Assembly: GCA_964187785.1 (NCBI GenBank)
Contig: OZ076412.1
Location: 37,324,001-37,388,000 of the forward strand
Direction: 5' to 3'
Length of the DNA: 64,000 nt
Source of the DNA: Amphiscolops sp. MND2022
Lineage: Eukaryota
Part shown: one piece after another, positions 39,359 to 63,760 of the stretch
Layout: every line of letters begins with the position of its first letter
How positions within the stretch are numbered: the stretch's first letter is position 1
Made by a program: the position numbers and the translations under genes
Notes under the pieces: model-generated
What the model was told of the DNA's origin: nothing
Databases searched by the model: none
The model's input: only the letters and a program-made list of their open reading frames with translations

Positions 39359-39387
39359 TGCAATTCTTTAAATTGTTGACTGCGCCA

Positions 39388-42790: not shown

Positions 42791-45700
42791 AATTTTTTCT
42801 TCATATCAGCGATGTCCTGATCTTCTTGAATATTTTGAATTTTTGCATCTGGTTTTTCAATATTTAGATTGATTCCTAGGTGTTTCATCCAATCTAATCC
42901 AAGTAATAGGTTTGTTCTTTTTGTGGTGATCAATAGCCCTAGTTTTTTTCTTTTCCCCGTCCATTTCAATGGTTGCCATTGTTTTTCCTTCGAATTTGAT
43001 TTTGTTGTTGTTTACGTCTCTGTATTCCTCATGGAGCGGGTATATTGTTGTAATACCATTGAATTTTTGTTTTGGTATTAAGGTGACCGGTGATCCGCTG
43101 TCTATTATGAATTTGATTGGACGGTTGTTAACGAATACCGTCACAGTAAAGAATGGTTGTCCGTCTTTGGATATTTGTTTTGTTGAGTGGACCGTCTTGT
43201 TTATTGAGTGTATCTTGTTTGGTGTCCAATTGTCTTCTTCTGCGCTGGTAGTAGCTTCGGAGTCCTGTTGAATATGTTTTATTCTTCGGTCCGAATATTG
43301 TTTCGATCGGCATGGCCTTGCGTAATGGCCGATTTTTCCGCAACTTAGACCCTTTTTTGTCTTTGCTGGGCAGTCATGTGATTTGTTCCAGTTCGGTGCC
43401 CCGCATCTGATACAGCCTACTTTTCTGAATTTGTTTTGTTTCTTTTTCTGGTTTTTGGTAGGTTCTTTTTCTATCCACGTGCTTGATTTTTGTTTCTTTT
43501 TCGGAATCTTTCGATTCATTCATTTTTTCGTACATGTATTCGTGGATTGTGTGGTAATTGCTTCCACCGACATGTCCCCTTTCTTTATTTTCTTTTTCAG
43601 GTCGTTATCGCCTGTCGTTTTTCCAATAACGGATAGAAATTTTGATGCGAGCAATTCAGCTGCCGTTATTTCTTCGAATTCGCAATTCTTCTCTATTTCT
43701 AGAATGCGTTTCCACGTTTCCGCAGCTGATTCTCCTAGTTCTCGTTTTAGATTGAAAAAATCTGCTCTGTTGTGGTGTTTGTTCCTCTCGGGAATGAAAT
43801 GGAGTCTGAAGAGTGTGTAAAGTCGGTATAATGGTAGGGAATTTGGTTCCCTTTCTCTTACTGTCTTTGTCATTTCCGTGATCGCTGATTGGCCAATCGC
43901 CCATATGAATACATCTTTGATTTCTTCCTCCAACTGCACTCTGAATTGTGGCAGTAACTCTTTGGAGTTGGTCATTTTCGATAAGTCGATTTCACGGGTC
44001 ATCTTGATGTATTGGACGAACTTTCTCCACCATAGTTTTGCACTGGTGTGGTCATTCTTATCGAGGATCGGAATGGGTAGCTTTTGTGTAGCTGTCCGTT
44101 TTACCGATCTCGTCGTTGTATTGTTTGGAAGGGATTGGCTGTTACTCTGTCCCGTTATGTTGCCTTCTTCGTCTTCCATTGCAATTCTTTAAATTGTTGA
44201 CTGCGCCATGAAGTAGTTCTAAGGTAGGCTTGAGAAAAGAAGTTAAGATCAACGTTTACACTAGCCGAAAGTTTACTGTAATGATATCAGCTTTAGATTA
44301 AGGGTTAAATAGTTGTTGGTAAACACTAATGATAATAAGTTCAAACTAAAAATAGCAACGGTAATTGATATAAAGTTGTTTGTCAACAGTCTACTACAGG
44401 TCCAGAAAGTTACAAGGCTGTTGCCAGAATAGCAAAGATTGACCCTCTGGGGCTCGGAATGATTTTTGAAACGGTAAAACTTTTAACCCTGAATGGACCA
44501 GAAAATTTCCGGATCCATCCAAAAATTTGATGCTTAAACTTTAAACCGCATTATCTCCTGAACTATTCAAGTCCGACAAACGATTTATAGCGCGTTCGAA
44601 AAAAGAGAATCAGGGCTTTCACACTGGCTCCAGACTTTGCGCCAAATATTTGCACGCCTCGTGTCTCTGACTGCATTTCAGCATGTTTGTAAACATGCTA
44701 GGGCCACTTTGACCCAATCTTGATACCAGTGGGATAAAGTGGCCACAAACAAAAACTGGAAAAACTGAAAATCTGGGCTCGTTTTTTTATTTTTTGGTTC
44801 CGTTTTCTTGATTTCGGAGACACCATGTCAATATTCCGTGAAAAGGCGTGCAATGCTATGTAATATCGTTTTAAAATCTTATTCAAATGTTTTCTTTATC
44901 ATACGGTCAGCTGGTGCGTTTAGAAGTTTGCAGAAATTAACTCGTACGAAATCGTACAATTGGTCCATGTAGGGTTAAATCTTTTTCGATACGGAACAAT
45001 TTCGTTTCCCCTAACATTGGCTCGCGAGATGAAAATATTTCAGAAAAATTCCAAGATTAAGTCTATCAAATTTCAAGTAAACCTTCTTTTGATTTTTGCA
45101 AAACAAGTGCAAAGTAGAGAAGACTAGGAGACACTGACATTTTAGACTCAATCCTTCACGTGATTTCTGTCAATCTCAACGAATCAGTGAAAATTGACAA
45201 GCTGGAAAAGAAATATTGAATAGCACCGTCTGTTGCAGCCGGGAACATCAAGAAGGTTATCAACGAAAAGATATTGAAAATTTTATCAACATTCTAGTTT
45301 ACCCAGAAATTAAGAATAAGTGGCGCAGTGGCATTTCTGTATTTTTGTATCCTTGTACAAGTATTTTTAAGCTTTTAGAATTAAACGGGACAACTTGATG
45401 AAGCATTGACAAAGAGCAGGCAAAAAAATAAAGGTTTTATCGGCAAAATAGCGCCTGTTTCCTCAAGCAGCAAACCATTCGAAGACGGGTTGAGAATTAG
45501 CATAACGAAGTCAACTAACGCAGACACTTGAAGAACTCGCTGTCTTATCAGGCGAAAGTGTCAAACTATACCGTCATGTTTTATTTTTGATATTTCATCG
45601 TCATTTTTTGTATTCAAGTTTGTGGGAAGCTCCATTGTTCGAAATCCATTGCGGTAACAAAAATGTCAATTCTTTGGGGTCTCAACTTTTCGAAAGCATA

Positions 45701-46625
45701 ATTATGTTTATATGACCAGATTGCATATATTCTACTAGCCCCGCCGTAAAAAGACAAAATTAAGCTTAAGCCTTTAAGTTACAGGTATCAATTCCTTGTT
45801 AATCTAACTTTAATTTCAACAGTAATGAAATCGTGGGCGAATTTTAAGACGTCAGTCGCTTCTACTTGAGGTTAAATACTAAAATCCCAAACATATCGTG
45901 CTTCTCCAAAAGAGAACTTCAGGTCAAAAAACTTCAAAATTCAAGCGCTCCTAACTGAGTTTCTCCGAAAAATTTGTTCCTTTGCTCAGGTGTTTCTCAT
46001 GTACGTCAGGTATCTTTCTTCTACTTGCAAGGTTCATGTATTCGAAACATGTTCGGCGACTTCTGAGCTAAGTTTCACGAATGTTGAATAATTCTAGTGA
46101 ATTTCAAAATCTATACCCATCATTTAAATTTGTTTCATGACAGTCTCATTTCAAGGAAAATTCCCGCATTTTTCATTCAATTTTAAAGAACTTTCTGAAT
46201 TTCTCAAATTTCGTAGGAAAAAACTCTAGTTCGCAAAAAAACTTAAAATACGTAGTTAACCTTTATGATGCTTTCATGAGCATGATCAGAAGTCAGTTAA
46301 AGTCAACTTCAACTGGACACCATATGTGCGCTATATTACGGTATATCCGGAAAATTTTAGGCTGAATGCGTTTTATCAGAAGTAATTCATTTGAAAAAAA
46401 ACTGGTGAAATCGAGAACGTTTCGAAAAAAGTCGCACAGTACCGAAAAAAGTGGGTAATTGTCGTCTTGTCTAGCTCTGCAAACAACGTGAAAAAAATGT
46501 AATATGCGTTTCACTTCTACTCCGCGATTGCAGGAAACAGTAAAAAAATTCATTAAATAAAAAATTTGGATATAACGGCAAAATATTATCGCCAAACATA
46601 CCATCGATTCATATTTTTTCTTTAC
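42791..46625. repeat. Tandem segmental duplicate (3.8 kb) of 37970-42790: gag/protease, LTR and flanking DNA
   Basis: Offset 4821 bp at the start; third LTR copy at 44209-44398 also followed by GGTCC; scattered substitutions and small indels between copies. Confidence 0.92.
42857..44179 (-). pseudogene. gag: Duplicated Mag-like gag/protease with an additional frameshift
   Basis: ORFs 43520-44179 and 42857-43519 reproduce the 440-aa ORF in two pieces. Confidence 0.9.
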
Positions 46626-47676: not shown

Positions 47677-50100
47677 TCAAATCAGAAGCGTCACGAAGTA
47701 AGACATGAAAACACAGATGTAAGATAGTTTGAGCGAAGTTGAAAAACTGTAATAAATCCAAACGATTCGAGAATAAGAGGTTTCCACCTCTACTTGATCA
47801 TTTAAGTCTTGGTTCGAAGGCAGAGGCGAAGAGACAACTTCCTTGGAATCTGAGTGACCATCTTCTAGGAATTTCAGAAAAATCGGATTCTTCATCAAAG
47901 GCGGTATATCACTCGAATCCACAGGTGCTGTAAACGTTAAGGCGTCTGTCACTAATGAAATGACCTCTGTGTTTTTAAGAGAGCCACCAATGACCTTTTT
48001 GAAAATCTCGGCCTGCGCAGGTGTCAAAACGTCGACCTTTTGGATCGTAACAATTTGGTCCATGTCTAGTTTTTGGAACACGTTGTCGGGAATGGAAGCG
48101 ATGACATCCTCTGAAAGGTCACCCAAAGCGTCCATAGCCAATAAGATGTTGGGATGAGTCATGAGAGTGATATCAGCGGCTTCACCGGCAGTTTTGGATT
48201 TGAGGGCGGCGGAATGGAACTGAAAGAAACTGGAGCTGACTGAATTTAGAGTGTTGCCTGACTTAGGGGGGCAATCAAGGTGATCGAATACCCCATCTGA
48301 TGTTAGAATTCCAGCACGCAAGTAGAGAATTGCGGATGGAGCAATACCACAAAGAAAGCGGCCCATAGTCTTGACATGCAAAACGGACAACTTGTCGACT
48401 GAGAGTTTATTCGTATGCAAGAAATGGTTGAAACCATTTGCAAGGTGATCGTGAGTCCATCCCGGAACTAATGACAACTTGTTCACAACTAATGAGTTAG
48501 AAAAGTCCAGGCTACTCATGTTTGAGGGGTGCAGAAACTGCGGAAGAAGCCACGATATGCGCAAAAGTTCTTCTGGACTGTGATTCCGGAGACTTTTAGA
48601 ACTGAACAACTTAGTTTTGATGGCTTTTATTGTCTCAGGCAAAAGTACATTAGCATTTTCCGCCAAGTACTCCACGTTCCGCCAAAATTGACAGTGCGCC
48701 ATAGAGTATATATCTGATGCATAAATAGAAGTTACTGGTAACAGTCGAAGAAAGTGGAACTTCTCAGGGCCATTTTCACATTCACTGGATTCGAACTCTT
48801 CCGTTACTAGTTTTGACAAAGCTATAGCACGAATTTCAGAAACGCAGCTCCCATTAGAGCTAGAGTCGCCAAAGCTTCGGCCTTTTTCAAGTTCTAGAGC
48901 CAAAATGTGCCAAAGATATGTTCTGTCGTATCGAATTTTGGACTCAATTAGATAATTGGATATATTGTTCGTTCTGTAAAGTACGCAGAAAGAGTTCCGC
49001 AACGACGAAAACTGATCGGACGTCAAAGATGCAATCGATGGAAGTTTAGGTCCAAGAGCATTGCCTTGCGCTTCATCGAAGGTGCACTCTTGAATAAAGT
49101 CCAAATTTTGCAACAGAACTGACGGAGAAACAATCTTGAGAACTTCGGCGGGCAAATAACAGAACAAGTTGCCCATTATTGCCACATCATCGTTGTTTAC
49201 GTCACACTCATGTGCTTGCTGGCACCCTTTGCATTGTATCAAATATAATTCTGCGAGAATTCGATTAGACTCGGTCGAGTATCTTCTAGGATCAGTCTGT
49301 CCAATTTTCATGAACACATCTCGGCATTTAGAGTCACTGTCAAAACCGGTCAATTCATGAAACTGTAATTCTCGAAAAACCTCACCGTTCAAAGAAATTA
49401 TGTGGAGATCCGAAAGCTTAGTCACCATGAATTGCTCATTGTGCAAGGTCCACCACACGTCCCTGAGCTTCGAAACAATGACTTGCATCATTTTTCTGTC
49501 GGCCATTTTTTCTGTCTGGTCGAGATACACTGCAATCGCATCAAAGAAGTAAAATGGATTCAAATTACGAATATCGGAGGGCGCGAACCCGCGCACCAAT
49601 TTCTTCAGAGAATGAGCAATCTGACCGGTGACAGGTACGCCACCGAGGAATTTTCTAAACTGTGTGTAGACAATGCGAGACATGACCAACGATAGGTCGA
49701 GGTCTATGATGTTATGGGAGCTTCCAGTTTTGATGAAACCCTGGATTTCGTTGAAATGTAGATCAAACTGCTTCAAATCTGAGTTCTGCAAAGTGTCTGA
49801 CAAAGCTTCCATCGATTGCAAAAGATTTGAACCGTACTCAACCAGCTTTGCATGCGGGCACGTTTCTAGAACCAATAACTTGTGGGCCGCAGTCAAAGTT
49901 TTTGAGATTGAGTTGATAACATTCAGTTTGGCACAGATAGAAGATTCGAACTCTATCTTGTCAGGCGACAAATATCCAATGAAGTTTGACAACTCTTCTA
50001 ATTGGTTCTCCTTGATGAGAATTTTTTTCTTGTACGGTGTGATATCTTTCAGCAGAAATCTACCCATCAAAGCTTGCTGACTCGCTGTCAAATGATTCAC
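47677..50100 (-). CDS. Terminal exon (807 codons) of a mesothelin/otoancorin/stereocilin-like surface protein
   Basis: Acceptor TTTTATCGTTGCAG ends at 50101, in frame; recurring MGxxLCxL motifs (MGNLFCYLP, MGRFLCGI), Leu-rich helical composition, hydrophobic C-terminal tail (GPI-signal-like). Family call is from pattern recognition only. Confidence 0.6.
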   Translation of the reverse strand: MNHLTASQQALMGRFLLKDITPYKKKILIKENQLEELSNFIGYLSPDKIEFESSICAKLNVINSISKTLTAAHKLLVLETCPHAKLVEYGSNLLQSMEALSDTLQNSDLKQFDLHFNEIQGFIKTGSSHNIIDLDLSLVMSRIVYTQFRKFLGGVPVTGQIAHSLKKLVRGFAPSDIRNLNPFYFFDAIAVYLDQTEKMADRKMMQVIVSKLRDVWWTLHNEQFMVTKLSDLHIISLNGEVFRELQFHELTGFDSDSKCRDVFMKIGQTDPRRYSTESNRILAELYLIQCKGCQQAHECDVNNDDVAIMGNLFCYLPAEVLKIVSPSVLLQNLDFIQECTFDEAQGNALGPKLPSIASLTSDQFSSLRNSFCVLYRTNNISNYLIESKIRYDRTYLWHILALELEKGRSFGDSSSNGSCVSEIRAIALSKLVTEEFESSECENGPEKFHFLRLLPVTSIYASDIYSMAHCQFWRNVEYLAENANVLLPETIKAIKTKLFSSKSLRNHSPEELLRISWLLPQFLHPSNMSSLDFSNSLVVNKLSLVPGWTHDHLANGFNHFLHTNKLSVDKLSVLHVKTMGRFLCGIAPSAILYLRAGILTSDGVFDHLDCPPKSGNTLNSVSSSFFQFHSAALKSKTAGEAADITLMTHPNILLAMDALGDLSEDVIASIPDNVFQKLDMDQIVTIQKVDVLTPAQAEIFKKVIGGSLKNTEVISLVTDALTFTAPVDSSDIPPLMKNPIFLKFLEDGHSDSKEVVSSPLPSNQDLNDQVEVETSYSRIVWIYYSFSTSLKLSYICVFMSYFVTLLI

Positions 50101-50289
50101 CTGCAACGATAAAATGATAATTGACTTTCAAAGCTTTCAGCACATAGAAAAATTCGACATTCTGATCTTTCCAAAGAAAGGATTCACTCATGAAAAAATC
50201 CAGTGATTATTACAACAAGCCGGGAACGGCCCAATTCGGCGCCATATCTAAGGCTCAAAAATAGCAAAAGGACTTCAAAGTGCCAAGAA

Positions 50290-50907: not shown

Positions 50908-51453
50908 AAAAAATGGACCATTCAGAGTCAACTGAAAAAAACTACCCACTGTAATAGTTAGGCACTTTCCTTAAGAAAAGCGCAGACTAAAAAACAGACA
51001 ACATATGCACAATCAATTTCGGAAACATTTAGGATGTTTATTTATTCACTTTATTCTCTACATAATAAAGACAACACTGATACATAGTGCCCATGGCAGA
51101 TCATGAAAAGGCCTTGCCTTCGTTGGTACCATACCAATAATTTACAACTTCGTACAATTCACGAAAATATTCAGAGTAGTCTCAGGAAAACGCAATTACA
51201 TCGGCAATGGAGATGGCAGAAATTCACGGCGTGTAAAATCGCGACACTTGGTTGAAAAACTGGATTCGCATGATTCCGTGAAAATGCGCGTAGTCGATCA
51301 AAAATAATTTGAAGACAATTTCTTGAACTTTCAGTAAAATGTTCACTCAATGTGAACTTTTTGCCAGTTCTTACACATATGCTGGCCAATGGAAGTCTCT
51401 CAAATTTTTACCCAATGGAATTCAGATTTTGAGTAGTCAATGTGAATAAACTC

Positions 51454-51964
51454 TGTTGTAAACCGGTGTTTTGGTTACTTAGTACTCGCTTTCTAACCTA
51501 AGCAATAAGTCTCAAAAAGTGTTACGAAAAGGAAGATAAATTAAAACTGGAGGTTTACAGTAAGTAGAATTTTGTTAAGTCCTGCAAATCGCTGACTTGT
51601 AAAATTTATAATGTTCTGTCAATTTTGGGACTCTTTGTCCTTTCAATTTTGGGGGATTTCCAGAGAGCAAGAGAGAAGGAAAATTGAGAGAAGAGAAAAG
51701 AGTTGTTGCTTTCTCAGTGTTCCGCGTTGGAATTGGTACCTGTATTTCTCTTTCCAGCTCAGGACAGTTCTACTGTCGCGTGGCTTTTTCCTATTGGCTG
51801 AGCATTAAAGGAATTTGGGAATTCCAATTTCCTTTTAGCGCGTTGCTATTCGCTTAGAAAATAAAATGCTCTAATAATTCCGCTTTGGAAATTATTATGT
51901 CTCTGAGTCAATTTCCTCTGTTGGGAAAATGAACTAAATTAGAAATAGCGCATTGCTATAACTC
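51454..51964 (-). repeat. 3' LTR
   Basis: No difference seen against 63250-63760; the same 65-aa ORF is listed in both copies. Confidence 0.95.
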
Positions 51965-52173
51965 ACCCCAGTTGACAGAGAAGACTGCATTAGTCGTAAT
52001 ACCAAAATCAATTAATAAATATAATGGGTATAAAATGGGTATAATGGATAATGGGTAAAACTTATGTAAAGTTTACGTTAAGGTAAAGAAATTTTAAAGG
52101 TTAAATAAGTTTAAGCAAATTATCAAGTTAAAAGAGTTTCAGTTTTGGTTGGAGAGCAGTTTATAGGGGGCTT

Positions 52174-53733
52174 TCAATTATTCCTTCCAGTTGGCACTTG
52201 CTTTGAATTTATGGGCCAGGGTAATCGAGTACATTTATTCTTCCACTCGGGGTCTTTGTCAAAATTGTATGCAATGGGATAGTAGACTGTTGAAAGTCGG
52301 GTTTTGACATTTCCTCGTTTTACGTTAAAAATGGAGTACTTTTCGTATTGTTGCCAATCCCAGTGATCAGCGTGGGTTAGCAGGGCGTGTAAGCATTTTT
52401 CCAGCTTTTCATACTGTTTTGCATCTACTGCTTGGATCAATTGAATAGCCTCGGCTCGTTGAATGTCGATTTCGACTCTCATTGTCTGCAGTTGTTTGAC
52501 CAGCTTGTCAATTTCGGTTTGGTCCTTTAATTTAGTGTCCTTTTTATCAAGAATTTCCTTGAATCGTTTATTTGCCACATCGAAGGCATCAAGTTTCTCC
52601 TTTAGGAGGATGTTTGTCTTGTTTGATTCTAAAAGTTCACTTTGAAGTGACTCCGCTTTGGAGGTCGCTTCTTCAATTTGGCTTTTCAGTTCCTTATTCT
52701 CATCGAAAAGGTCTGATGTTACTCTTTCGGAGATTTCTAACTTGAATTCAGCTCGATTGGCACTCTCTTTAGCCATTGCTCGTGACCGATTGGCAGAGCA
52801 GAGAGCATTCTTCAAATTGGCTAGTTCAATGTTCAGGCTGCGATTTTGTTGTTCAAATTCGGCAATTGCGAATTCGGTTTTCCAAAGAGCAGCGGTAAGA
52901 TTGGTATCAGGTGTATCGATCCACTCTTCATTCCCAGTTTGTGTAGTCGCATTGCCTGTGGATCTAGTATTGGATGGAATATGGGGATTATCGGCGGACA
53001 CTTCCCTGAAGGAGGATGTACTATCTGACGAACTGATTGTACTTGTATTATCGTTGAAAAGAGGGTTTGGATCGTCAGGGAACGCGGTGATAACACCAAA
53101 GGGGGCCTTTATCATGGAGTCAAGTTGATGATTATAAACTACATACTTCCTTTCTTCAGGAAGACGGTCTTTTAACCTCCATTGGTTCATGTCCTTCGGA
53201 AGAGTAACTTTTATGGCTGGGCAATTGTCGGGGGGAATAACAATAGAACAATTCAACTTTTTGTGGACAATTTCAATTCCTGTTTTAGGAGTGGCAAGGA
53301 ACCATTCATTATGGTCCTTCCGTATACCATACTTTAGGAATTTGATGAATTTGGGGTCGTCAGTGTCCACATTATTTTCGCGGGATTTTTGGATTTCAAG
53401 CCTTTCTTTAAGGCTTGGAAACCAATTTTTTTCTTTGGGTAACCCATCGTCGAGTCTCATTGACACGCACGAGGGGCCTTTAATTTTCCCATCACCGAGT
53501 CTCTTTGACAGGCGGTTAGGGTCGAAATTCACATTATTTTCGAATTTAGTAGCTTTTCTTGGCCAATTTGGCTCAGGGTCGGTAGAGGCTAATCGCTTGT
53601 TAGCCTGGTTGTGATGTTTTTGAAAACAGGGTTTAACCCGTTTTGTTTTCCGGGACCTAAAGGTTACATTAGAAGGACGCAGGTCATCAGGGATGAAACC
53701 TTCAGGCTCGAATAGGTCGATAGCATCAGACAT
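52174..53733 (-). CDS. ORF4, 519-aa protein of unknown function with a long coiled coil
   Basis: ATG-initiated and uninterrupted, between env and the 3' LTR; basic N-terminus (RSRKTKRVKP), S/T-rich linker, heptad-like region (~aa 280-445); no signal peptide or TM segment seen. Confidence 0.85.
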   Translation of the reverse strand: MSDAIDLFEPEGFIPDDLRPSNVTFRSRKTKRVKPCFQKHHNQANKRLASTDPEPNWPRKATKFENNVNFDPNRLSKRLGDGKIKGPSCVSMRLDDGLPKEKNWFPSLKERLEIQKSRENNVDTDDPKFIKFLKYGIRKDHNEWFLATPKTGIEIVHKKLNCSIVIPPDNCPAIKVTLPKDMNQWRLKDRLPEERKYVVYNHQLDSMIKAPFGVITAFPDDPNPLFNDNTSTISSSDSTSSFREVSADNPHIPSNTRSTGNATTQTGNEEWIDTPDTNLTAALWKTEFAIAEFEQQNRSLNIELANLKNALCSANRSRAMAKESANRAEFKLEISERVTSDLFDENKELKSQIEEATSKAESLQSELLESNKTNILLKEKLDAFDVANKRFKEILDKKDTKLKDQTEIDKLVKQLQTMRVEIDIQRAEAIQLIQAVDAKQYEKLEKCLHALLTHADHWDWQQYEKYSIFNVKRGNVKTRLSTVYYPIAYNFDKDPEWKNKCTRLPWPINSKQVPTGRNN

Positions 53734-54005
53734 CGTGGGTAGGAGTAATTAAGTGTCGTTAAATTCTAAGCTGATAATTAAAGAACAACAAAGGATAACT
53801 TGGAATAACTGGTAGTTGGTAGTTGGCGACTATACTAAATTTTAGAAAGCGAGTTATATAGGGTTTGTAAGTCAATTTGTGCGTGTGTCATTATGTTTGT
53901 GACCAGAAGAAAAACATCAATAATCACAGTGGTATCTATTCCAGGAAGCCTTATCACTTTTAAGTAAGAGAAATTTCACTAAAGAGTAAACGTTTTTTGT
54001 AAACT

Positions 54006-56357
54006 TTATGGTGGGGGTAATGGAGCATTTCCATTACTGTTGTTATTTGAGGTACTAGGAGCGTTTTCATTGACAGTAGTCGGAGCATTTCCAGAACTGT
54101 TATTGCCATTGTTTTGTAAAAAGGTATTTAATGTACTAGGAGCATTTCCTGTTTGATTTAATACATTTGAGTCAGCTCTTTGTCTTTCATTAAGAGTAGA
54201 ACCAATCGCAATCGGATTGTTCAAGAGATGTACTTGAGGATACAAAAGAGTCGGATTTTCTTCGTACATTGGTGCAGCTATAGGTCTATTGCCTGCAGGG
54301 TTCTGCGAGAAACCATTTGAAATCCTTTTATTTTCCTCATTTTCGTACATTGGAGTCTGAAGTGAGAGAACAAATAAATTAAAAGTTGCGCCTAACATAG
54401 TTCTGACAAAACCAAAAGTGGCACCAGAAACTTTTCGAATTTCAAGTCCTCGGAGGACAATGACAACAACATCAATAACGAACTTTACCAAAAGGAAACA
54501 AGCAAAAAAGTTTCCTAAACACTGGATAATATATCCCAATTCGCCAAAAGTTTCCTTGAATTTATCGACGAAAAAAGAAGGCGTCAACAAGTGATCCAAC
54601 AGAAGTCTATCATTTAGACTCAAAAGACGTTCCAAGTTTCCCGGTTCGGAAATTCGAACTGAGTTACCTCGAGTCAAAATAGTCCGAGTAAGCTTCTTCA
54701 ATAATGTATCAGAAGCAGAGTTGTGGATTACATTATCCCAAAAATTTTTCATTTGATTTGGGGTGTACATTCCAGCACCCCTGGTGTCGAAAGTTGGAAA
54801 CTGAGTAATATGTCCAAGTTCAGTTGGCTTGAACAACAAAGGTTTATTGAAAGGCATGGGCTCAGGTAAAAGTTGGTACCAGGAATTGTCATTTTCGAGA
54901 TCAAGTTGAAACACATTTGTGTAATCTCCCAAACAGGGTATCTCGGATGCAAAATCATAAGTCTGACGGGTGATAGGATCTACAAATTTCGTAGACCGTT
55001 CAAACATGATCGGGATTCGATCATAACATTTATCAAGCACTTTCAAGGGCGACAAAAACTTCGGACAATGGTATAACCATGCGACACTTCCATCGGTGTC
55101 AAGGAACATAGACCTGTTTCCAGTTAACATGTAACCGGCAAGTCTTGTGTTTTGCATTGCTAACATTAAAATAGTTAACATTTGAGTTCGTTCGAGTTCG
55201 CATTGGCTCTGCAGAAGTGTCATTTCAGAATGCCTCAATTGCTTCGCATTGAAGTACATTATATAGTCTAACTTTGTTCCCAAGTGCAATTCATAATCAA
55301 TTTCATCCGCGCCGACGGTATGCCAAGGCTGTGCACCAATCCATTGGCCATTTGATTTGCTGAAAGATAATGACGAATAAGAGACCTGGCTAGAGTTGTC
55401 AATAGAAAATTGGTAGGCGTTAAAAGCATGTTCTTTAGTTCGTAGTTCTCCACCTGGCATTGCGAAACCTCCTTGGTAAGTCACAAATAGACTCTCAAAA
55501 TTTGTTTTGAACAATCGTTCAGGTTTCCCACATAGCTCATAGCTTTCAGGGAAGACTTTTATTTTGAGGTTCATTCCTTTGCCAGTCTCATTATGTTCGC
55601 TGATTAGGAAAAATTGGTTTTCGTTTCTGTTCGTTGACAATGGATACTTAAGCATTTTTGCTTCCTGAGTGAGGATTTTTGTCATCACGCAGTTTTCGGG
55701 AGTATCCCACGTGTAAGCGAATGGGTCTAAAGTAGTGGTCTCGCAACCACCCTCCATTAAAAGACATGGCAATTTTTGTTTATTTGGATTGGAAACCTCT
55801 TTGGTTCCGTAATCGAATGTCAAATTCACACGTTGCATGAACGTCTCGAAGGTATAGTGCTGTACTTGACCACTTGAGCAATGAATGGTTGTGCGGACTG
55901 ATTGTCCATCATTGAAATTCGATTGTTTCTTTGTATCGAATTCAATTGGGGCATCGAAGTTTTCGCTAAAAGACGAAATTTTAATTTTGTTCGTCTTTGA
56001 TGCCTGTCGGCACATTTCAGGAGTAACGATAAGGTCATACGTTATACTATTTTGAGTATGAACGTAGGACGAATGCGAAAACATTCCACAATTGTAGCGG
56101 AAGACATGGGCCTTGACAGAACACATTGTTGCTGCCAGATCAGTCCGATAGTTCTTCTGATAAAGTGTGATAGTAGCCGGGGTGACATACAAGTTTTCTG
56201 GTGTGATCTTGCAGTCTGCTACCTTGTTCAGGGAGTACATTCGATTGTCTTGCATTTTTGTGCAATCATAATGAGATACAAACAAGTTCTTTGACACATT
56301 GTCAAAGTCATCACTTGCACAAGAAAAAGGAAAAAGGAAAAGAATAAAGTAAAACAT
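54006..56357 (-). CDS. env: Envelope-like glycoprotein, 783 aa, chuvirus-glycoprotein-like pattern
   Basis: N-terminal signal peptide, Cys-rich ectodomain with N-glycosylation sequons, two hydrophobic segments near the C-terminus, long Asn/Pro-rich tail. Confidence 0.85.
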   Translation of the reverse strand: MFYFILFLFPFSCASDDFDNVSKNLFVSHYDCTKMQDNRMYSLNKVADCKITPENLYVTPATITLYQKNYRTDLAATMCSVKAHVFRYNCGMFSHSSYVHTQNSITYDLIVTPEMCRQASKTNKIKISSFSENFDAPIEFDTKKQSNFNDGQSVRTTIHCSSGQVQHYTFETFMQRVNLTFDYGTKEVSNPNKQKLPCLLMEGGCETTTLDPFAYTWDTPENCVMTKILTQEAKMLKYPLSTNRNENQFFLISEHNETGKGMNLKIKVFPESYELCGKPERLFKTNFESLFVTYQGGFAMPGGELRTKEHAFNAYQFSIDNSSQVSYSSLSFSKSNGQWIGAQPWHTVGADEIDYELHLGTKLDYIMYFNAKQLRHSEMTLLQSQCELERTQMLTILMLAMQNTRLAGYMLTGNRSMFLDTDGSVAWLYHCPKFLSPLKVLDKCYDRIPIMFERSTKFVDPITRQTYDFASEIPCLGDYTNVFQLDLENDNSWYQLLPEPMPFNKPLLFKPTELGHITQFPTFDTRGAGMYTPNQMKNFWDNVIHNSASDTLLKKLTRTILTRGNSVRISEPGNLERLLSLNDRLLLDHLLTPSFFVDKFKETFGELGYIIQCLGNFFACFLLVKFVIDVVVIVLRGLEIRKVSGATFGFVRTMLGATFNLFVLSLQTPMYENEENKRISNGFSQNPAGNRPIAAPMYEENPTLLYPQVHLLNNPIAIGSTLNERQRADSNVLNQTGNAPSTLNTFLQNNGNNSSGNAPTTVNENAPSTSNNNSNGNAPLPPP

Positions 56358-56468
56358 CTTGTATAAATAGAGATAGAAACAGTAGAAAGATATACAAATG
56401 CGCTTTGCATAGGATTTGTTTGGAATGACTTGGCGAGAGAGAGTAGAAAAAGAGAAATGATAATAATA

Positions 56469-59400
56469 TTAGAAATAAGGCTTTCCGTACCACTCTCTAG
56501 GAATGTTTCGTAACGTTCCTGTATTTCGTGAGCGTGGAGCAGCGGTAGTACTAGTTGAAGGAATATTGCGGGGTAAAGGACTAGGTGTGGTTGGCTGACT
56601 AGTTATTGCTGGCGATTCTCCTTGAAATGAAATAGGAGTCTGAGGAGATGACTGAGGGATGCCAGAGTCGGGTGAGCTCGCTAAGAAAGTCGGTGTCGAA
56701 TGAGCGGAGCCGCATTTAGCAGGCGAACTATAAGTCGTGTTCATCCTGGATGGACCAGGTGTGTCGGGAAATATAGGTAAGTATTCTTGTACGTGCTGTC
56801 GTTCAGCAAGCGTTTCAATTGGTTTGTTCAATTCGGAGAGTCGATTCTTTGCATACTCGTTGTAAAAATGTTCGGTTCTGTCGTCGTTGACAGGCTTTTC
56901 GTAATTGGACAACAATGTCGGTAAGTCATTATTACGAGGGAAAAATTCAACGAGATGATTACGATGAACGACATGAATCCTCGTTGGATCCGAATCGAGC
57001 GCGACTTCATAGTTCACTTTCGTGATCACTTTAGTCACAGTGTACGGTCCACTTCGGAGCTCGCACAGTTTTTGTGATTTCCCGAATGGGACTTGATGAT
57101 TTTCGAGTAGTACTTTTTGTCCAACACGTAATGGTTTAGCAAGTTTGTACTTGTTTCGGTACGGCAGAGATCGATGATTCGCTTTACGAACCTTTGTATA
57201 TACTTTTCTGTATATGTTTTTGAATTGTGTTTCTCTGTGTAACAAATCCAATGAACACTTTGACGTCAGTAAGGAGTCGATGCAAGAATGTTTCGTGTCT
57301 TTATTCAGGTGTGAATGGTCAGGTAAAGACTGACAGAATTCGGATTGACACAAATCATTGTCGTCTCTCACTAGACCTAATTTCAACGAAATTGGAATTT
57401 GTGGTTTAAATCCGAAAACAACTTCGTAGGGGGTTGTTCCTGTACTGGCGTTCACTGAAGTGTTATGAGCGAAGGCGAATTGAGGAGCCAGCTTGGCCCA
57501 ATTATTTCCTGCTTCGGAAAGATAGCATCGAAAATATCGACTGAGGTGTTTGTTTTGAATTTCAACCTTGCCGTTAGTCCAAGGAGACCATTTAGTTCTT
57601 GGGGCATGCGTTATGCCTAAATCCAAGAGAAAGGTTGAGAAATCGGTGCTCATGAACGATGTTCCTCTATCATATACAAGTTTTTGAGGAATACCAAACG
57701 AAGTAATGAAAGAAGTCATGGCTTCAATGGTATTACTTGCATCAGTCGACTTGACTGGGTAAACTTGTATAAATCGTGAGAATGCGTCAATCACAACCAA
57801 ACAGTGATGTTTCCCGTCGCTCATCGGATTCAGAGGTCCTTTGTGGTCAATGTGAACAGTGTGAAAGGGATAAGGAATTTCTTCTCCCCATTTTTCATTT
57901 GGAGCGGTGTTTTGATCCTTTCTGACTTGTTTATTTTTTCGGCATATCAGGCAGCTCTTCGTTAGAGTCCGCACCCATTTATACATACCAGGCCAATAGA
58001 AAAATCTTTTCAGAGACAAAAGTGTCTTTTCACATCCGGGATGTCCTGAAAGTCGATGGTCGTGTGCAACATTGAAAGCTTCAATGAAACAGTTGCGAGG
58101 CAAACATATTTGTCGTGATGAATGCTTGCTAGTTTTACAAACAAGATGGGTTTCTTCATCGATGAACAATTTTTCAAATTGATTTGAGTAGCCAAGTAAT
58201 CCCTTGCATTGTCTTGACTCGACATCTTTTGACGGCACTTTGCCTTTAATTATCCATGATTTAACAGTGCTCAGGACTGGGTCATCCTGTTGGTTTGCCA
58301 AAATATTGTTTAAATCAAGGTTATCGGTAACAAGTTTCAATGGTTGTTGTGAGTCTTGAATGGTAAAAATGGAGAGGATGAAAGGAACATCTTCTTTAGA
58401 TGCATTTACAACCTCTGTGTTCAATAGAGGATCTTCGTCAGAAGCTTCATTGTCACTATTGTCGGTTTCAGAGTCAATCTCTGAATAATGATTTTCATGG
58501 ACGTCGGCTTCCACAACTATTGGTGGGGTTTGCCATTTACGTCGGATGTTGATGTCCTTACCTTCACGGAAGGAGTCAGAAACATCAAAGAGCGCTTTCG
58601 GAGAGTTTGGATCGTATACCGTACAGATAAGATCTGTACCATCATTTTTCAGGTGAAGTTTCTTTGTTTCACCCAAGTGAGTGCAAACAATTGGGTAGAA
58701 ATCATCGTTGGCGCTTTCAGCAGGGCTGTTGTGGTCTATCAGATACTGAACTTCGTGTCCACTTTGGCTGAAGAACTTTATATCTTTTGGAATTTCTTTG
58801 TGAAGCAATTGGTGCCCATTGAGATCTTTCAACGACACATTTCTGCTTAGCAAATCTGGAAACGCTAAATTCTTTCCAGGGGTCCAAATGATTTGCAAAT
58901 TAGTGAACTGAGTGATAATCACTTGGTAGCGGAAGAATCTATGAGATAATCTTCCTTTGCGTGCCCATAGATACAGGAGGGGCTTGTGATCACAGAATAC
59001 CTTGATGGGATGCCGAGATCCAATTATGAAATGCTCATACGTTTGTAGAGCAGAAATGATTCCGCATAGTTCTCGATGTAGCGTTGACATCTTTTGTTCA
59101 TCCTTTGTAAAGACTCGCGAATTGAAGGAAACTATACGTTTCCCGGAAGGAAAATCTTGAATTAAGATTGATCCCGTACCAATACTGGAGGAGTCGACAG
59201 GGATGTGGAACGGATACTTTGGGTTTGGTACAGCTAAGATGGTTTCTTCGCTGATTCTATTTTTTATGTCTTGGAACAAGTTCTCATGCTCTTTTGTCCA
59301 TTTGAATGGAGTGTCATCTCTCAGAAGTTCGTAGAAAGGTTTCGAATCTACATGTAGATTTTTGATGAAGGTGCTATAGAAACCTAAACTTCCTAAGATG

Positions 59401-61391
59401 CGCATTACATCTCTTTTGTTCTCAGGGCTTTTCAGGTTTTTCAAATCTTGTACCTTTTTGGCTACTGGCTGGATTCCTTTGTCGGAAACAATGTGTCCAA
59501 GAAACTGAACTTTCCTCAAGAACAGTTTTGTTTTGTTCGGTGCAGCTTTCAGACCTGATGATCTCAAGCACTTGAAGTATGAATCCAAATTATTCCACAT
59601 TTCTTGTTTGGTTTTTGCCTGTAGGATAACATCATCAATGTATGTTATCACTTGCTTCTTGGCTATCATTTCAGCGAAATGAATAGTCATTATCCGACTG
59701 AAGAAGTTTGGTAGTCCGCAAAGACCATAGAATCCTCGTTCGAACATGTACTGTTTTCCACCAACAATAAAGCTTGTCAACTTCTTCGTATCTTCGGTGA
59801 GGGGTACTTGGTTATAGGCGGAAGCTAAATCACTCGTTGTGTAATAAACTCCATCAAGTCGTGTCAGTAACATTTGTACTGGTTCAAGGGGCCATGAGTA
59901 GTTAGTCAAGTCAGTGATTGAGTTAAGATAACGTGCGTCAATCACAAGCTTCACGGTATCTCCTTTTGGTAAAATGATGATAGGGTTTGTGAATAGGGAA
60001 CCCATTTCCACATCATTTCCCATTTCTCGAATGATTCCAGCTCGTTGCAGTTCATTCAGAAGAATTTCAAGTCGGTCTCTGTAGTGCAGAGGGACTTTTG
60101 AGGGCCTTTGTTTTCGCAATTCGGCGTTTTTCTTCAATTGTACATGAAATGCTTGTGTGATTTTTCCAACATCATAAGTAAATTTTGAAAACACGTCATT
60201 GTTTTCAACTAAAACTCGGAGAAGATGTTGTAATTCACGGTCATTTATATCGGATTCAGAAAAGTCAAACTTTTCTAAAAAGTTGCGTTCGGCGGGACTA
60301 AACTCGGCGTAAAATTCATCGTCGAGTTGTTTCCTTTTAATATCGGAAGCAGTTTTGGGCATTTTCGGTTGTAATGATTTCACCTCATTGGAGAAATCAG
60401 TAGCCAGTTCATTTTGCGAAATAGCGCTTTCGGCCATTTGTTTCCGTGAATCAATTTCCGTTAAGGAATAAATATACGGTTCGGTCGAACAAACGTGTAA
60501 ATCCTTGTTCCATTGAGACTCAGAAGTTTTGAGATACTCAATGAAAGCGACATTGTCAACGACACTCATCAATTGCGAGGTCTCTTGGACGCTGTCGAGC
60601 AATGTGTATCCAAGAATTCCTTTACGAATAGTAATACTATTCGGGTTCGGATTGTTCAGCATTAAAGGATATTTCGACTCGTCTTGTGAGCAATACACGT
60701 GATACGTGTAAATGCCAGTATCTAAAATGTCTTGGTGTAAACGGAAACTTGTTCCCTGTTTGAACAAATGTTTATCTTCATCTCTAGCAATTAAACTCAA
60801 AACTCGGATCGAATACGGTGCAATTGTGATGTCTTGAGTCAATTCTACTGAATTAACCTGGGAGAAGTAGGGAAAAGGCTTGTCTAAATAAGGTGACAGT
60901 TTAACACATTTGCCGGGGAAGACCGTTAAAATTAGCATTGGATTTCTCAAGTTAATGAATTCACCAAAATTTGCCAAAAAATCCATTCCAAGAATGTTCA
61001 TTCTCGCCTCGGGGGAATCAGACACATAAACAGTGTGTTCGATCACACAAGAATATTCTACGTCAAACGCAGACTGAATAATAGTTTTCCCTTTCATGGG
61101 CATTGCGTGTCCATTAGCAGCTAAAGGCGATTTCTCGAGAGGCGTTACAACTAAAGGCTGAATTTTGTTAATTTCAGTGAATGTCTCACGGTTGATAATG
61201 GAGCACGTTGCGCCAGTATCTATGAGAAATTGAGTGCTAAGGCCATTATTTTTATTTTTGTCTCCGACGGCGTATTGAAATAATTCTATATAAAAATGTT
61301 GGCCGGACGTTCCAGCAGTTGGAATGTGAGGGGTTTCATTTGATTCCTCACTTTGTTGGTTCGGAGACTTGATTATTTTAAAGGATTGCAT
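56469..61391 (-). CDS. pol: Pol polyprotein (PR-RT-RNase H-IN), 1640 aa
   Basis: FLIDTGA; YIDD; RNase H D/E/D/D in VDSS, RELC, CDHK, PDLL; HHCC; HIDH..YDRG-35 aa-E; GPY/F-type module SGPYTV. Confidence 0.97.
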   Translation of the reverse strand: MQSFKIIKSPNQQSEESNETPHIPTAGTSGQHFYIELFQYAVGDKNKNNGLSTQFLIDTGATCSIINRETFTEINKIQPLVVTPLEKSPLAANGHAMPMKGKTIIQSAFDVEYSCVIEHTVYVSDSPEARMNILGMDFLANFGEFINLRNPMLILTVFPGKCVKLSPYLDKPFPYFSQVNSVELTQDITIAPYSIRVLSLIARDEDKHLFKQGTSFRLHQDILDTGIYTYHVYCSQDESKYPLMLNNPNPNSITIRKGILGYTLLDSVQETSQLMSVVDNVAFIEYLKTSESQWNKDLHVCSTEPYIYSLTEIDSRKQMAESAISQNELATDFSNEVKSLQPKMPKTASDIKRKQLDDEFYAEFSPAERNFLEKFDFSESDINDRELQHLLRVLVENNDVFSKFTYDVGKITQAFHVQLKKNAELRKQRPSKVPLHYRDRLEILLNELQRAGIIREMGNDVEMGSLFTNPIIILPKGDTVKLVIDARYLNSITDLTNYSWPLEPVQMLLTRLDGVYYTTSDLASAYNQVPLTEDTKKLTSFIVGGKQYMFERGFYGLCGLPNFFSRIMTIHFAEMIAKKQVITYIDDVILQAKTKQEMWNNLDSYFKCLRSSGLKAAPNKTKLFLRKVQFLGHIVSDKGIQPVAKKVQDLKNLKSPENKRDVMRILGSLGFYSTFIKNLHVDSKPFYELLRDDTPFKWTKEHENLFQDIKNRISEETILAVPNPKYPFHIPVDSSSIGTGSILIQDFPSGKRIVSFNSRVFTKDEQKMSTLHRELCGIISALQTYEHFIIGSRHPIKVFCDHKPLLYLWARKGRLSHRFFRYQVIITQFTNLQIIWTPGKNLAFPDLLSRNVSLKDLNGHQLLHKEIPKDIKFFSQSGHEVQYLIDHNSPAESANDDFYPIVCTHLGETKKLHLKNDGTDLICTVYDPNSPKALFDVSDSFREGKDINIRRKWQTPPIVVEADVHENHYSEIDSETDNSDNEASDEDPLLNTEVVNASKEDVPFILSIFTIQDSQQPLKLVTDNLDLNNILANQQDDPVLSTVKSWIIKGKVPSKDVESRQCKGLLGYSNQFEKLFIDEETHLVCKTSKHSSRQICLPRNCFIEAFNVAHDHRLSGHPGCEKTLLSLKRFFYWPGMYKWVRTLTKSCLICRKNKQVRKDQNTAPNEKWGEEIPYPFHTVHIDHKGPLNPMSDGKHHCLVVIDAFSRFIQVYPVKSTDASNTIEAMTSFITSFGIPQKLVYDRGTSFMSTDFSTFLLDLGITHAPRTKWSPWTNGKVEIQNKHLSRYFRCYLSEAGNNWAKLAPQFAFAHNTSVNASTGTTPYEVVFGFKPQIPISLKLGLVRDDNDLCQSEFCQSLPDHSHLNKDTKHSCIDSLLTSKCSLDLLHRETQFKNIYRKVYTKVRKANHRSLPYRNKYKLAKPLRVGQKVLLENHQVPFGKSQKLCELRSGPYTVTKVITKVNYEVALDSDPTRIHVVHRNHLVEFFPRNNDLPTLLSNYEKPVNDDRTEHFYNEYAKNRLSELNKPIETLAERQHVQEYLPIFPDTPGPSRMNTTYSSPAKCGSAHSTPTFLASSPDSGIPQSSPQTPISFQGESPAITSQPTTPSPLPRNIPSTSTTAAPRSRNTGTLRNIPREWYGKPYF

Positions 61392-62476
61392 GACTGCAGA
61401 GTGTCATACAAAGAATTCACCTTGTCAGGCTTTGCTTCGAACCGAACAGCTCCAGAGTAGCTGTTACTTCTGCTTCGGTAGCCATTTGAAACATAAGGAC
61501 TATTACTTCTGCCTCTTTGGTTGTTGGACCGATTGTCCGATTGTGATGTGTTATTATTCGGAGACTTGGGTCGACTTGGATAGTTTTGCGCATATGTTTC
61601 TTTTGGTTGGGGAGGAGGTTTTTCCTCGTTTTCTTTCTTCTTTTTCAATGTCCAACAGTACTTGATTGTGTGTCCGGATTTTTTGCAAAAGTTGCAAAAT
61701 CTAGTAAAGTCTTGTTTCATTTTTGGGTTGTTCGGATCATAGGTAGCATTGATTTGATGATTTTTCACCATGTTGGTGATTTCATTCAATGTTTTCTCTA
61801 TGTTAGTGAAACGGGCGTCCATTGTCCCTGTTGAAGTTTGGGAACTTGAAGGTTGCAAGCCGGACATTTCGGCACTCACAACTAAACTCATATCTTTATT
61901 TATGATAAGAGCCTGTAAAGCGTCCCATGATTTGTTGGGATCTTCAATCATTGCTTGATGGGCTTTCTGTTTAAGACCCGGGCGCATTAAGCCTCTTATG
62001 AAGTAGTCTTTGTACTTCCCAATTCTCTGATTTTCGCATGCTGTGATAGCCTCTTGATTCGCATTTGACGGTGTTGGCCAGCCTTTGTCTACCAACGTTT
62101 TTATTCTGTGGATGTAACTTTTTATGTTTTCATCAGGCTGTCTTTTCAGATTCTCGGCCTCAATTCGGAACCGATATTGCATTTTTCCATCCGTAAACCT
62201 GTTTATGAATTGTGTTTTCATTTCTTCCCATGCTAACGCAGCGTCTAATGAATCAAACCACTCAGCCGCAGGTCCGCGTAGAACGGATCCGAAAAGTGCT
62301 TTTCTGCGGTCGTCATACACGGTTTGTTGGCCATTTTCATTTGTCGTAGGCCTACTTCCTAAAGAAAAGCTGATTTTCGTTTCTAATAGACGTATAAAAG
62401 CAGTTGGGTCCTCACTTGAATCGATTCCAATGAACTTTTCTAATGCTAAGTCAGGGTACGCTACAGTGTTTGCCAT
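61373..62476 (-). CDS. gag: Gag, 367 aa
   Basis: CX2CX4HX4C knuckle CNFCKKSGHTIKYC; LRGPAAEWF capsid-like segment; first ORF after the PBS. Confidence 0.92.
   Translation of the reverse strand: MANTVAYPDLALEKFIGIDSSEDPTAFIRLLETKISFSLGSRPTTNENGQQTVYDDRRKALFGSVLRGPAAEWFDSLDAALAWEEMKTQFINRFTDGKMQYRFRIEAENLKRQPDENIKSYIHRIKTLVDKGWPTPSNANQEAITACENQRIGKYKDYFIRGLMRPGLKQKAHQAMIEDPNKSWDALQALIINKDMSLVVSAEMSGLQPSSSQTSTGTMDARFTNIEKTLNEITNMVKNHQINATYDPNNPKMKQDFTRFCNFCKKSGHTIKYCWTLKKKKENEEKPPPQPKETYAQNYPSRPKSPNNNTSQSDNRSNNQRGRSNSPYVSNGYRSRSNSYSGAVRFEAKPDKVNSLYDTLQSCNPLK
61376..61382 (-). promoter_or_regulatory. Candidate -1 ribosomal frameshift heptamer U_UUA_AAA
   Basis: Lies directly before the gag stop, in gag phase; pol is in the -1 frame across it. 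Confidence 0.6.
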
Positions 62477-62776
62477 TTGTCTATTTAATCACGTTTATTT
62501 TGCTCCTTTATCACACTTTACAATTTTATTATTATTTTTGGCAATAACAGACTGGATTTTTGTGTAGAAGTTTCTTTGCTCCAATACACATGTAAAAATT
62601 GTTTACAAAGGAATCTCTTCGATCCTTTCGCAAATAAATAATTTTTGGAGTTTTGTTGCTCCTTTGAAGTGGACAGTTTCTGCGTATTTAAGCCTTAACA
62701 CGGAATGTTAAATTCCAAGGCAGCAGGCGAGGTGAAATATGGGCTTTCCATTTTCTTGCGAAACCTCGCTGGGATC

Positions 62777-63001
62777 GTGCAATTTAAGGAACACTCGTGT
62801 GCCAGAAATAAATTTCTTCCACGGAACCCGCACACGCTAATACCGAAGCTAGCGTAAGTGGATACTGTTTAGACTCAGTACCAAGAGTTGTGCAATTTAA
62901 GGAACACTCGTGTGTCAGAAATAAATTTCTTCCACGGAACCAGCACACGCTAATACCGAAGCTAGCGTAAGTGGATACTGTTTAGACTCAGTACCAAGAG
63001 T
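62777..63001. repeat. Two tandem ~113-bp repeats in the 5' leader
   Basis: GTGCAATTTAAGGAACACTCG...CAGTACCAAGAGT at 62777 and 62890, two mismatches seen. Confidence 0.95.
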
Positions 63002-63229
63002 ATGAAATTTTGTTTAGTATCTGCTTTAGATACTAAATGTTGTCAAAAAGTGAGTTTTTTTGTTTAATATCTGCTTTAGATATTAAATGTTGCACAAACA
63101 GTTGTTATTTTTCAAGAAATATTTGCTTTAAATATTTCAATTTTGCAAGATAAAACCCACCACGGGGAAAAGATTTTTGTTTTGTACGCTCGGTTTTATG
63201 GTCGTACAAATTGCGGTGTGAAATTGTTC

Positions 63230-63247
63230 TTTGCTCTGGTCGCACCA
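63230..63247 (-). promoter_or_regulatory. Primer-binding site
   Basis: TGGTGCGACCAGAGCAAA just inside the 5' LTR; priming tRNA not identified. Confidence 0.7.
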
Positions 63248-63249
63248 GA

Positions 63250-63760
63250 TGTTGTAAACCGGTGTTTTGGTTACTTAGTACTCGCTTTCTAACCTAAGCA
63301 ATAAGTCTCAAAAAGTGTTACGAAAAGGAAGATAAATTAAAACTGGAGGTTTACAGTAAGTAGAATTTTGTTAAGTCCTGCAAATCGCTGACTTGTAAAA
63401 TTTATAATGTTCTGTCAATTTTGGGACTCTTTGTCCTTTCAATTTTGGGGGATTTCCAGAGAGCAAGAGAGAAGGAAAATTGAGAGAAGAGAAAAGAGTT
63501 GTTGCTTTCTCAGTGTTCCGCGTTGGAATTGGTACCTGTATTTCTCTTTCCAGCTCAGGACAGTTCTACTGTCGCGTGGCTTTTTCCTATTGGCTGAGCA
63601 TTAAAGGAATTTGGGAATTCCAATTTCCTTTTAGCGCGTTGCTATTCGCTTAGAAAATAAAATGCTCTAATAATTCCGCTTTGGAAATTATTATGTCTCT
63701 GAGTCAATTTCCTCTGTTGGGAAAATGAACTAAATTAGAAATAGCGCATTGCTATAACTC
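63250..63760 (-). repeat. 5' LTR
   Basis: Direct repeat of 51454-51964; on the minus strand it has a CCAAT box and a TATAAA (63401-63406). Confidence 0.95.

Follow-up and report, generated by a model that had tools for sequence, protein, structure and literature searches.

A 64,000-nucleotide stretch of the Amphiscolops sp. MND2022 genome (GenBank assembly GCA_964187785.1, contig OZ076412.1, positions 37,324,001 to 37,388,000; hereafter the window, whose own numbering is used throughout) carries on its minus strand, at 51454-63756, a Ty3/gypsy long terminal repeat (LTR) element with four ATG-to-stop open reading frames (ORFs), gag, pol, env and ORF4. We consider it very probable that this element is an errantivirus of the gB type and that its fourth gene is functional. 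Taken as a whole, the account that we favour on balance is that of a young insertion of such an element, whose accessory fourth gene encodes a self-directed regulator. The first-pass annotation had listed four uninterrupted same-strand ORFs of 367, 1640, 783 and 519 amino acids, which we confirm on the minus strand. The novelty lies in an accessory gene that is under selection and belongs to a new family, and in a TRAF-type alternative in sister families; the element class itself is known.

The fourth gene (ORF4, 52174..53733, minus strand) lies behind env and before the 3' LTR and encodes an accessory protein of 519 amino acids. The predicted product begins with a basic, low-confidence N-terminus (residues 1-92, with RKTKR at residue 28), followed by a β-barrel (about 93-225), an S/T-rich linker, a coiled coil (about 276-434) and a conserved helical C-domain (about 408-510), residues 408-510 being the part best conserved between two young families of copies. 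These families were defined in the 1.07 Gb of genome searched, where 40 of 124 LTR candidates were scored: 21 matches to the window LTR, at 98-100%, make up family A, and 19 others, at 84-85%, family B. In pairwise Nei-Gojobori comparisons of A with B, in which the pairs share one A-B split and hence are not independent, the ratio of non-synonymous to synonymous divergence (dN/dS) of ORF4 was 0.07 at a synonymous divergence (dS) of 1.03-1.12, and three of three protein-guided pairs gave 0.071-0.073 at a dS of 1.05-1.09, over about 185 synonymous differences. Constraint was tightest in the coiled coil (dN/dS 0.05) and in the C-domain, whose synonymous sites are saturated and whose pN is about 0.035, and loosest in the linker (0.15-0.18), the barrel giving 0.07-0.09. 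The corresponding dN/dS values were 0.07-0.11 for gag (dS 0.13-0.16), 0.07-0.12 for pol (dS 0.11-0.14) and mostly 0.11-0.21 for env (dS about 0.035 in most B copies). All four genes are under purifying selection, ORF4 as strongly as pol, and ORF4 is a real gene; the first-pass annotation, which had named a lack of purifying selection as a point that would count against its extra gene, is in this respect borne out.

The class of the element follows from its other three genes. The product of env (54006..56357, minus strand; 783 amino acids) matched PF24664 (Monjiviricetes_fusion) at E 1.2e-40 with 139.6 bits (cut-off 27), the best stretch being residues 358-709, as expected of a class III (Monjiviricetes/gB-like) fusion glycoprotein. 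The protein has a hydrophobic N-terminus, 17 cysteines, eight N-glycosylation sequons and, by hydropathy, a transmembrane segment at about 606-640; the predicted class III ectodomain, assigned by profile rather than by structure, lies between signal peptide and transmembrane segment. Env carries neither an RxK/RR furin site nor an F-type Pfam match, features that would mark an insect F-type Errantivirus. A PDB sequence search with env gave no match, and its ESM Atlas neighbours were class III glycoprotein clusters at 0.84-0.87, which is under 0.9 and a lead only. The non-F envelope that had been called from the sequence is therefore upheld by the PF24664 match. Its standing as a novelty is not, because the premise that env-bearing Ty3/gypsy elements are of the insect F type only is outdated: in the part of the recent survey by Chary and Hayashi (eLife 2026, PMC13524379) available to us, elements whose env is of the HSV/gB type are described across metazoans, and gB-type env is as common as F-type among 1,512 intact env-bearing Ty3/gypsy elements.

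The gag gene (61373..62476, minus strand; 367 amino acids) matched Retrotrans_gag (PF03732, E 2.6e-06) and has a CCHC knuckle at residues 261-274. In pol (56469..61391, minus strand), the Pfam domains stand in the order protease (PR), reverse transcriptase (RT), RNase H (RH) and integrase (IN), the last with HHCC and D-35-E motifs and followed by an SH3/GPY module. A motif check found PR DTG, RT YIDD, RNase H D-E-D-D and both integrase signatures, so that all of the catalytic residues claimed earlier, including D,D35E, are present. The length of 1640 amino acids given for pol stands as an ATG-to-stop count, while the start codon it implies probably does not: pol is in the -1 frame relative to gag, the two overlap by 19 nt, and a candidate -1 frameshift heptamer of the form X XXY YYZ (61376..61382, minus strand) lies directly before the gag stop. 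All copies compared have the heptamer, the window copy as well as 20 of 20 others, and Gag-Pol is probably made by -1 ribosomal frameshifting. The best PDB matches of pol were Ty3 Gag-Pol (7q5b, E 1.5e-55) and an RT/RH structure (4ol8, 8.3e-37), with foamy-type Pol ranking behind both (2.4e-26), a ranking by similarity only within a PDB set that lacks BEL/Pao structures. With gag, pol and env intact inside one LTR element, the window element belongs, on the features tested, to the gB-type errantiviruses.

We then compared the region behind env across related elements. An RT/RH tree restricted to elements from this genome does not show in which order events took place. In family D, with RT/RH 72% identical to A and env about 44-60% depending on the stretch, a homologue of ORF4 (29-39% identity over the matched stretches) stands right behind env in six of six places, mostly in broken copies. 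Families C and E (RT/RH 72-73% identical to A and 91% to each other; env 36-39%) have no ORF4. Their post-env slot instead holds an ORF of 153-169 amino acids, without a Pfam match, and a TRAF-C/MATH gene whose product of 250 or 325 amino acids matched PF21355 at E 1.6e-21, 5.5e-22 and 2.2e-22. Cassettes of this kind lie at L109:4422-5720 (minus), L111:2521-3802 (plus) and L187:6778-8224 (plus). The TRAF-C gene is RING-less and coiled-coil-bearing and lies within the LTRs in both families, the distance from the end of the post-env genes to the LTR being 23 nt in C (LTR 2.07 kb) and 58 nt in E (LTR at least 1.7 kb). Comparison of two C subfamilies, at a dS of about 1.4-1.6, shows purifying selection, with a dN/dS of 0.044 in the TRAF gene, 0.10 in the small ORF and 0.02 in env. 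The TRAF search, in which 150 of 514 candidates were scored, returned at least 34 full-length family-C copies at 98-100%. Families C and E are high-copy five-gene elements. In family E (L187:1-4615; C2 8.855-8.860 Mb), a gap of about 3 kb with internal repeats and no long ORFs separates pol from env, for which reason a survey allowing only 1 kb between these genes would miss the family. The best reading of these data is a clade of 'complex' errantiviruses in which alternative cassettes of accessory genes stand behind env.

Within the A/B pair, ORF4 has a history of its own. A and B differ by about 1% in env and by about 1% in both the polypurine tract (PPT) region and the LTR's first 250 nt, as against 17-18% in ORF4, 18% in the second LTR half and 14% in the leader. 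The A-B dS of ORF4, about 1.05 compared with about 0.035 for env and about 0.11 for pol, shows that ORF4 was exchanged by recombination. A single linked swap of ORF4 with the whole LTR was also considered and is ruled out by the low divergence of the PPT region and the first LTR half. One natural recombinant, at C8:8.78 Mb, combines an A-type ORF4 and A-type leader with a B-type LTR half and gag start; here the type of ORF4 tracks that of the 5' leader and not that of the LTR or gag. In three other copies the N-terminal half of ORF4 leans towards A and the C-terminal half towards B, with a B-like leader in both of the two that could be scored. Such natural A/B recombinants offer a ready genetic handle on what ORF4 recognises. 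The C8 recombinant (C8:8776421-8789588; loci L101, L031, L146 and L164) has identical LTRs, and its 3' LTR directly abuts another primer-binding site (PBS) and leader in a tandem arrangement.

Turning to the protein itself, ORF4 has no transmembrane segment or signal peptide by hydropathy, and its basic cluster at residue 28 resembles a nuclear localisation signal. Residues 275-434 form a long predicted helix with a heptad pattern, in which the a/d positions are about 70% hydrophobic compared with 32-41% overall (best register chosen); from this pattern, oligomerisation is predicted. A model of the whole protein was of low confidence, with a predicted local distance difference test (pLDDT) score of 53, and a viral Foldseek search with it found nothing at E<=0.001. 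The barrel, modelled from an alignment of 65 sequences over residues 85-230 as one helix plus a β-barrel, reached a pLDDT of 86.6 and a predicted template modelling (pTM) score of 0.72. Nearly all of its top 50 structural matches were SH3-like (PWWP, Tudor, KOW of Spt5/NusG, BAH and chromo; Z 3.8-4.8), with Tudor, PWWP and Agenet readers among the best. This fold class, consistent across the matches, suggests that the N-domain is an SH3/Tudor/KOW-like barrel. By these features ORF4 is predicted to be a soluble adaptor-type protein, and is not a second envelope or a recognisable enzyme.

Database searches place ORF4 in a protein family of its own. Neither ORF4 nor any of the 65 aligned members has a Pfam match, no PDB relative was found (a PDB profile search with alignment A2 gave coiled-coil noise only), the ESM Atlas gave no usable match to the N-domain, and alignment A1, scanned against metagenome contigs and viral contigs, gave 183 and 56 pattern matches, respectively, of which none was confirmed. 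Homologues numbered 112 in the 90% collection and 267 among the 50% representatives (the best 150 of the 267 being listed); those inspected are unnamed proteins, nearly all of which stem from ENA contigs. More distant relatives, 25-40% identical, share conserved blocks and form multi-copy clusters of up to 97 members, which only suggest mobile elements. Of these divergent families (P0312/P0346, P0266 and P0112), which occur in other assemblies, this genome has no member except ORF4. A host paralogue was likewise not seen in the genome search, where the hits were of element type and the leading ones were checked in context. ORF4 thus defines a protein domain family that is absent from Pfam.

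As to how such an element might work, general retroelement biology would have the 5' LTR drive a genomic RNA and a tRNA prime reverse transcription at the PBS, with Gag and Gag-Pol made from the genomic RNA through the -1 frameshift and env and ORF4 expressed from subgenomic RNAs, for which the acceptor-like sites give a mixed picture. Env would fuse particles with neighbouring cells, plausibly carrying them from soma to germ line as in Drosophila errantiviruses. The least certain step is that of ORF4, which may be a soluble, oligomeric and probably nuclear regulator: its barrel would bind nucleic acid or methylated chromatin, its coiled coil would oligomerise and its C-domain would recruit a partner, together helping the element's own RNA to be expressed or exported, much as Rev, foamy-virus Tas/Bet or Cer1 CERV do. 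That ORF4 acts on the element's own RNA or chromatin is a tentative proposal, and the one that we favour over the alternatives below.

A number of observations weigh against this account. The best structural match of the barrel (Z 4.8, root-mean-square deviation 3.0, 57 residues aligned) falls below the tool's own significance guide, Foldseek gave no match to the barrel model at E<=0.001 in the PDB and viral libraries, and a shared barrel fold shows no function. A leucine-rich nuclear export signal pattern was not found in ORF4. Acceptor-like splice sites precede env and ORF4 in the window copy and six of nine family C/E ORFs, against a background of 149 of 1058 ATGs; none of six family-B-type ORF4 starts has one within 45 nt, and a strong splice donor was not found in the leader. 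Families C and E transpose well without ORF4, implying that it is not universally required in the clade. The pairing of ORF4 with leader type is also imperfect, for the N-half leans towards A in three copies despite a leader that is B-like in the two scored; the C-half tracks the leader in all scored lineages, a lead only that rests on one informative event. Finally, compared with all of the other family-A copies examined, the window copy has private codons in gag (7, 6 non-synonymous), pol (11, 3 non-synonymous), env (6, 2 non-synonymous) and ORF4 (2, 1 non-synonymous). With 6 non-synonymous changes against 1 synonymous in gag, and a private substitution adjoining the first RNase H motif in pol, the open frames do not prove that this copy works.

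A rival account, possible though in our judgement rather unlikely, is that ORF4 is directed at the host as a counter-defence protein, either an anti-silencing decoy or an innate-immune antagonist, in which the barrel would mimic the Tudor and chromo readers of the piRNA and heterochromatin machinery. The presence of Tudor, PWWP and Agenet readers among the top barrel matches is in keeping with this, as is the recombinational exchange of ORF4 between A and B, and the slot that ORF4 occupies is filled in families C and E by a selected, RING-less coiled-coil and TRAF-C/MATH gene that looks like a decoy of host signalling. Such a role sits less well with the absence of visible positive selection in ORF4, pairwise dN/dS reaching at most 0.18 in any region, and with the fact that no host paralogue was seen among the genome hits, of which only the leading ones were read in context.

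We regard as improbable a second alternative, under which ORF4 would serve the particle as a cofactor, structural or for trafficking, of matrix-protein or phosphoprotein type; it might then have been taken over along with env from a negative-strand RNA virus. Env and ORF4 do co-travel, in that env is about 52-60% identical in families that have ORF4 and 36-39% in those that lack it, and a disordered N-terminus followed by a coiled coil and a helical C-domain is, from general knowledge, reminiscent of mononegaviral P proteins. Yet ORF4 gave no significant viral match by sequence or structure and lacks a transmembrane segment or other membrane anchor, and its exchange between A and B, whose env has remained about 99% identical, is a poor fit to a tight partner of Env. 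That ORF4 is a mere passenger, whether a chance frame or a captured non-functional fragment, has in its favour the lack of a Pfam match and of relatives outside seemingly related animal assemblies, but is refuted by the purifying selection measured on the gene; in addition, ORF4 has conserved blocks in common with proteins 25-40% identical to it and contains a confidently folded domain.

How does this arrangement compare with known systems? Foamy viruses, which are complex retroviruses, carry the accessory genes tas and bel2 between env and the 3' LTR. The position is the same as that of the accessory gene here, but foamy and other complex retroviruses belong to the Retroviridae, with a class I or foamy env, and no homology to ORF4 was detected. 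The closest relatives described are the HSV/gB-type errantiviruses (PMC13524379), which, in the part of that source available, share with the window element the LTR-gag-pol-env-LTR layout, a class III env with signal peptide and transmembrane segment, multiple copies and young age. Their furin site is not always conserved, in line with its absence from the window env. They are annotated there as gag, pol and env only, whereas the window element adds ORF4. The accessible text contains no occurrence of 'accessory', 'TRAF', 'extra ORF' or 'downstream of env', no acoel is named in it or in the accessible supplements, and four element peptides and the PBS were not found in those supplements, in which long cells are incomplete and from which the bait sequences stand apart.

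For the function of ORF4, a model is offered by CERV of the C. elegans element Cer1 (PMC10309623), an accessory protein of 517 amino acids with coiled-coil and multimerising domains that is needed for nuclear export of the genomic RNA. By its description there, CERV contains an M domain and a GTPase-like G domain and is made by splicing from gag-region exons plus one 3' exon, whereas ORF4 has a predicted SH3-like barrel and stands as an ORF of its own behind an intact env. The giant planarian gypsy element Burro/GYPSM1 (PMC6431247) combines env-like and MATH/TRAF-C domains as families C and E do; as reported in the sections available, these lie within a polyprotein of roughly 5,000 amino acids or an upstream ORF, while the TRAF-C protein of C and E is encoded by a separate gene 3' of env, and the window element has ORF4 in that place. 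The same source remarks in general terms that ORFs downstream of env can be acquired by capture in LTR elements. In bdelloid rotifers, LTR elements with a variable ORF3 (PMC5408684) likewise have an exchangeable post-pol slot with family-specific cargo, but there the cargo replaces env ('ORF4' does not occur in the accessible text), whereas here it is added behind an intact env. In literature searches covering sources other than Repbase, GyDB and most subscription journals, we found no description of a four-gene gB-type errantivirus, a TRAF-carrying env element or the ORF4 domain family.

Env-bearing Ty3/gypsy elements have been treated as simple three-gene entities, and the elements described here carry selected accessory genes behind env that differ by family. 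If ORF4 and the TRAF-like protein act as their anatomy suggests, invertebrate retroelements independently evolved retrovirus-style regulators as well as immune antagonists. A broader and distinctly speculative reading, which we consider unlikely in its full form, is that this 'complex' errantivirus lineage is the Ty3/gypsy counterpart of the complex retroviruses, in which ORF4 recognises the leader RNA or chromatin of its own subfamily, or a captured RING-less TRAF protein damps host innate signalling, while a class III fusogen moves the elements between cells.

The termini of the element agree with those of other Ty3/gypsy elements. The direct repeat of 511 bp reported earlier is an exact match (51454-51964 versus 63250-63760) and its identity stands, while its length does not: the LTR measures 507 bp, with the 5' LTR at 63250..63756 and the identical 3' LTR at 51454..51960 (both minus strand; 0/507 differences), and the apparent 511 bp arise because the bases of the 4-bp target-site duplication (TSD) coincide by chance with the last 4 nt of the PPT. 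The TSD lies at 63757..63760 (5' side) and 51450..51453 (3' side), its register being taken from other copies, namely the junctions of 20 LTR loci and 18 scorable LTR pairs (19 tried). A 4-bp TSD at the 507-bp register was found in 16 of these 18; of the other two, one has its 3' LTR cut by the locus end and the other is in tandem. A TSD of 5 or 6 bp, possible from the window alone, is ruled out by the other copies. The window LTR has TA...CA termini and a TATAAA at LTR nt 351; four of eight other family-A pairs also start with TA and the rest with TG, with CA at the 3' end. The element therefore has the LTRs, TSD, PBS and PPT of a Ty3/gypsy element, in a TA...CA variant of the TG...CA seen in most copies. 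A G-rich, PPT-like site (51961..51972, minus strand) is conserved before the 3' LTR in 18 of 18 scored pairs, two of them with a single change nearby, and the 5' leader contains a 113-bp tandem duplication (62777..63001, minus strand) that appears single-copy in family B.

The PBS noted earlier is present as a PBS-like motif (63230..63247, minus strand) that starts with TGG 2 nt after the 5' LTR and is identical in 17 of 18 scored 5' LTR flanks, the remaining one being cut off by the locus end. The nearest tRNA 3' ends were those of minor Leu(TAA) and Val(TAC) variants, and a match to a priming tRNA was not obtained among them. Long tandem tRNA arrays occur in this genome at C11:22.43-22.46 Mb (L151) and C2:56.46-56.57 Mb (L150, L154 and L155), with tRNA-Leu(TAA) at a period of about 270 bp and tRNA-Val at about 359 bp.

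In agreement with the first-pass annotation, which had proposed a recent insertion, the window LTRs show 0/507 differences, and about 10 LTR pairs or solos are nearly identical (98-100%). LTRs differed by 0-5 nt in eight family-A pairs and by 1-6 nt in eight of nine family-B pairs, and overall 17 of 18 scored pairs differ by only 0-6 of about 507 nt. Families A and B are recent insertions. Most copies are damaged: among 20 others compared, pol is free of stops and frameshifts in three and all four frames are open in one. In one internally deleted family-A copy of 7.7 kb (C7:21875581-21883295), the frames of env and of ORF4 are still open. A solo LTR at C7:41280381-41280888 bears its own 4-bp TSD.

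Elsewhere in the window, 1.4 kb downstream of the 3' LTR and on the same strand, lies an intron-free, host-like ORF of 796 amino acids (47677-50127, minus strand) with a hydrophobic C-terminus and a weak match to Stereocilin (PF21058, E 0.00038, below cut-off); it had no match among longer proteins. The region at about 33400-46500 (minus strand) contains degraded, partly duplicated copies of one unrelated gypsy-type element (gag, PR, RT, RH and IN fragments), whose RT is about 34% identical to that of the main element and whose repeats are spaced at 1 kb, 3.8 kb and 4.8 kb. Element fragments at about 16400-21900 (minus strand), with a 1.4-kb internal duplication, we take from the resemblance of their motifs to be a decayed BEL/Pao element. 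A transposase-like fragment at 12444-12989 (minus strand; WPARSPDLNIIE) presumably derives from a Tc1/mariner DDE transposase.

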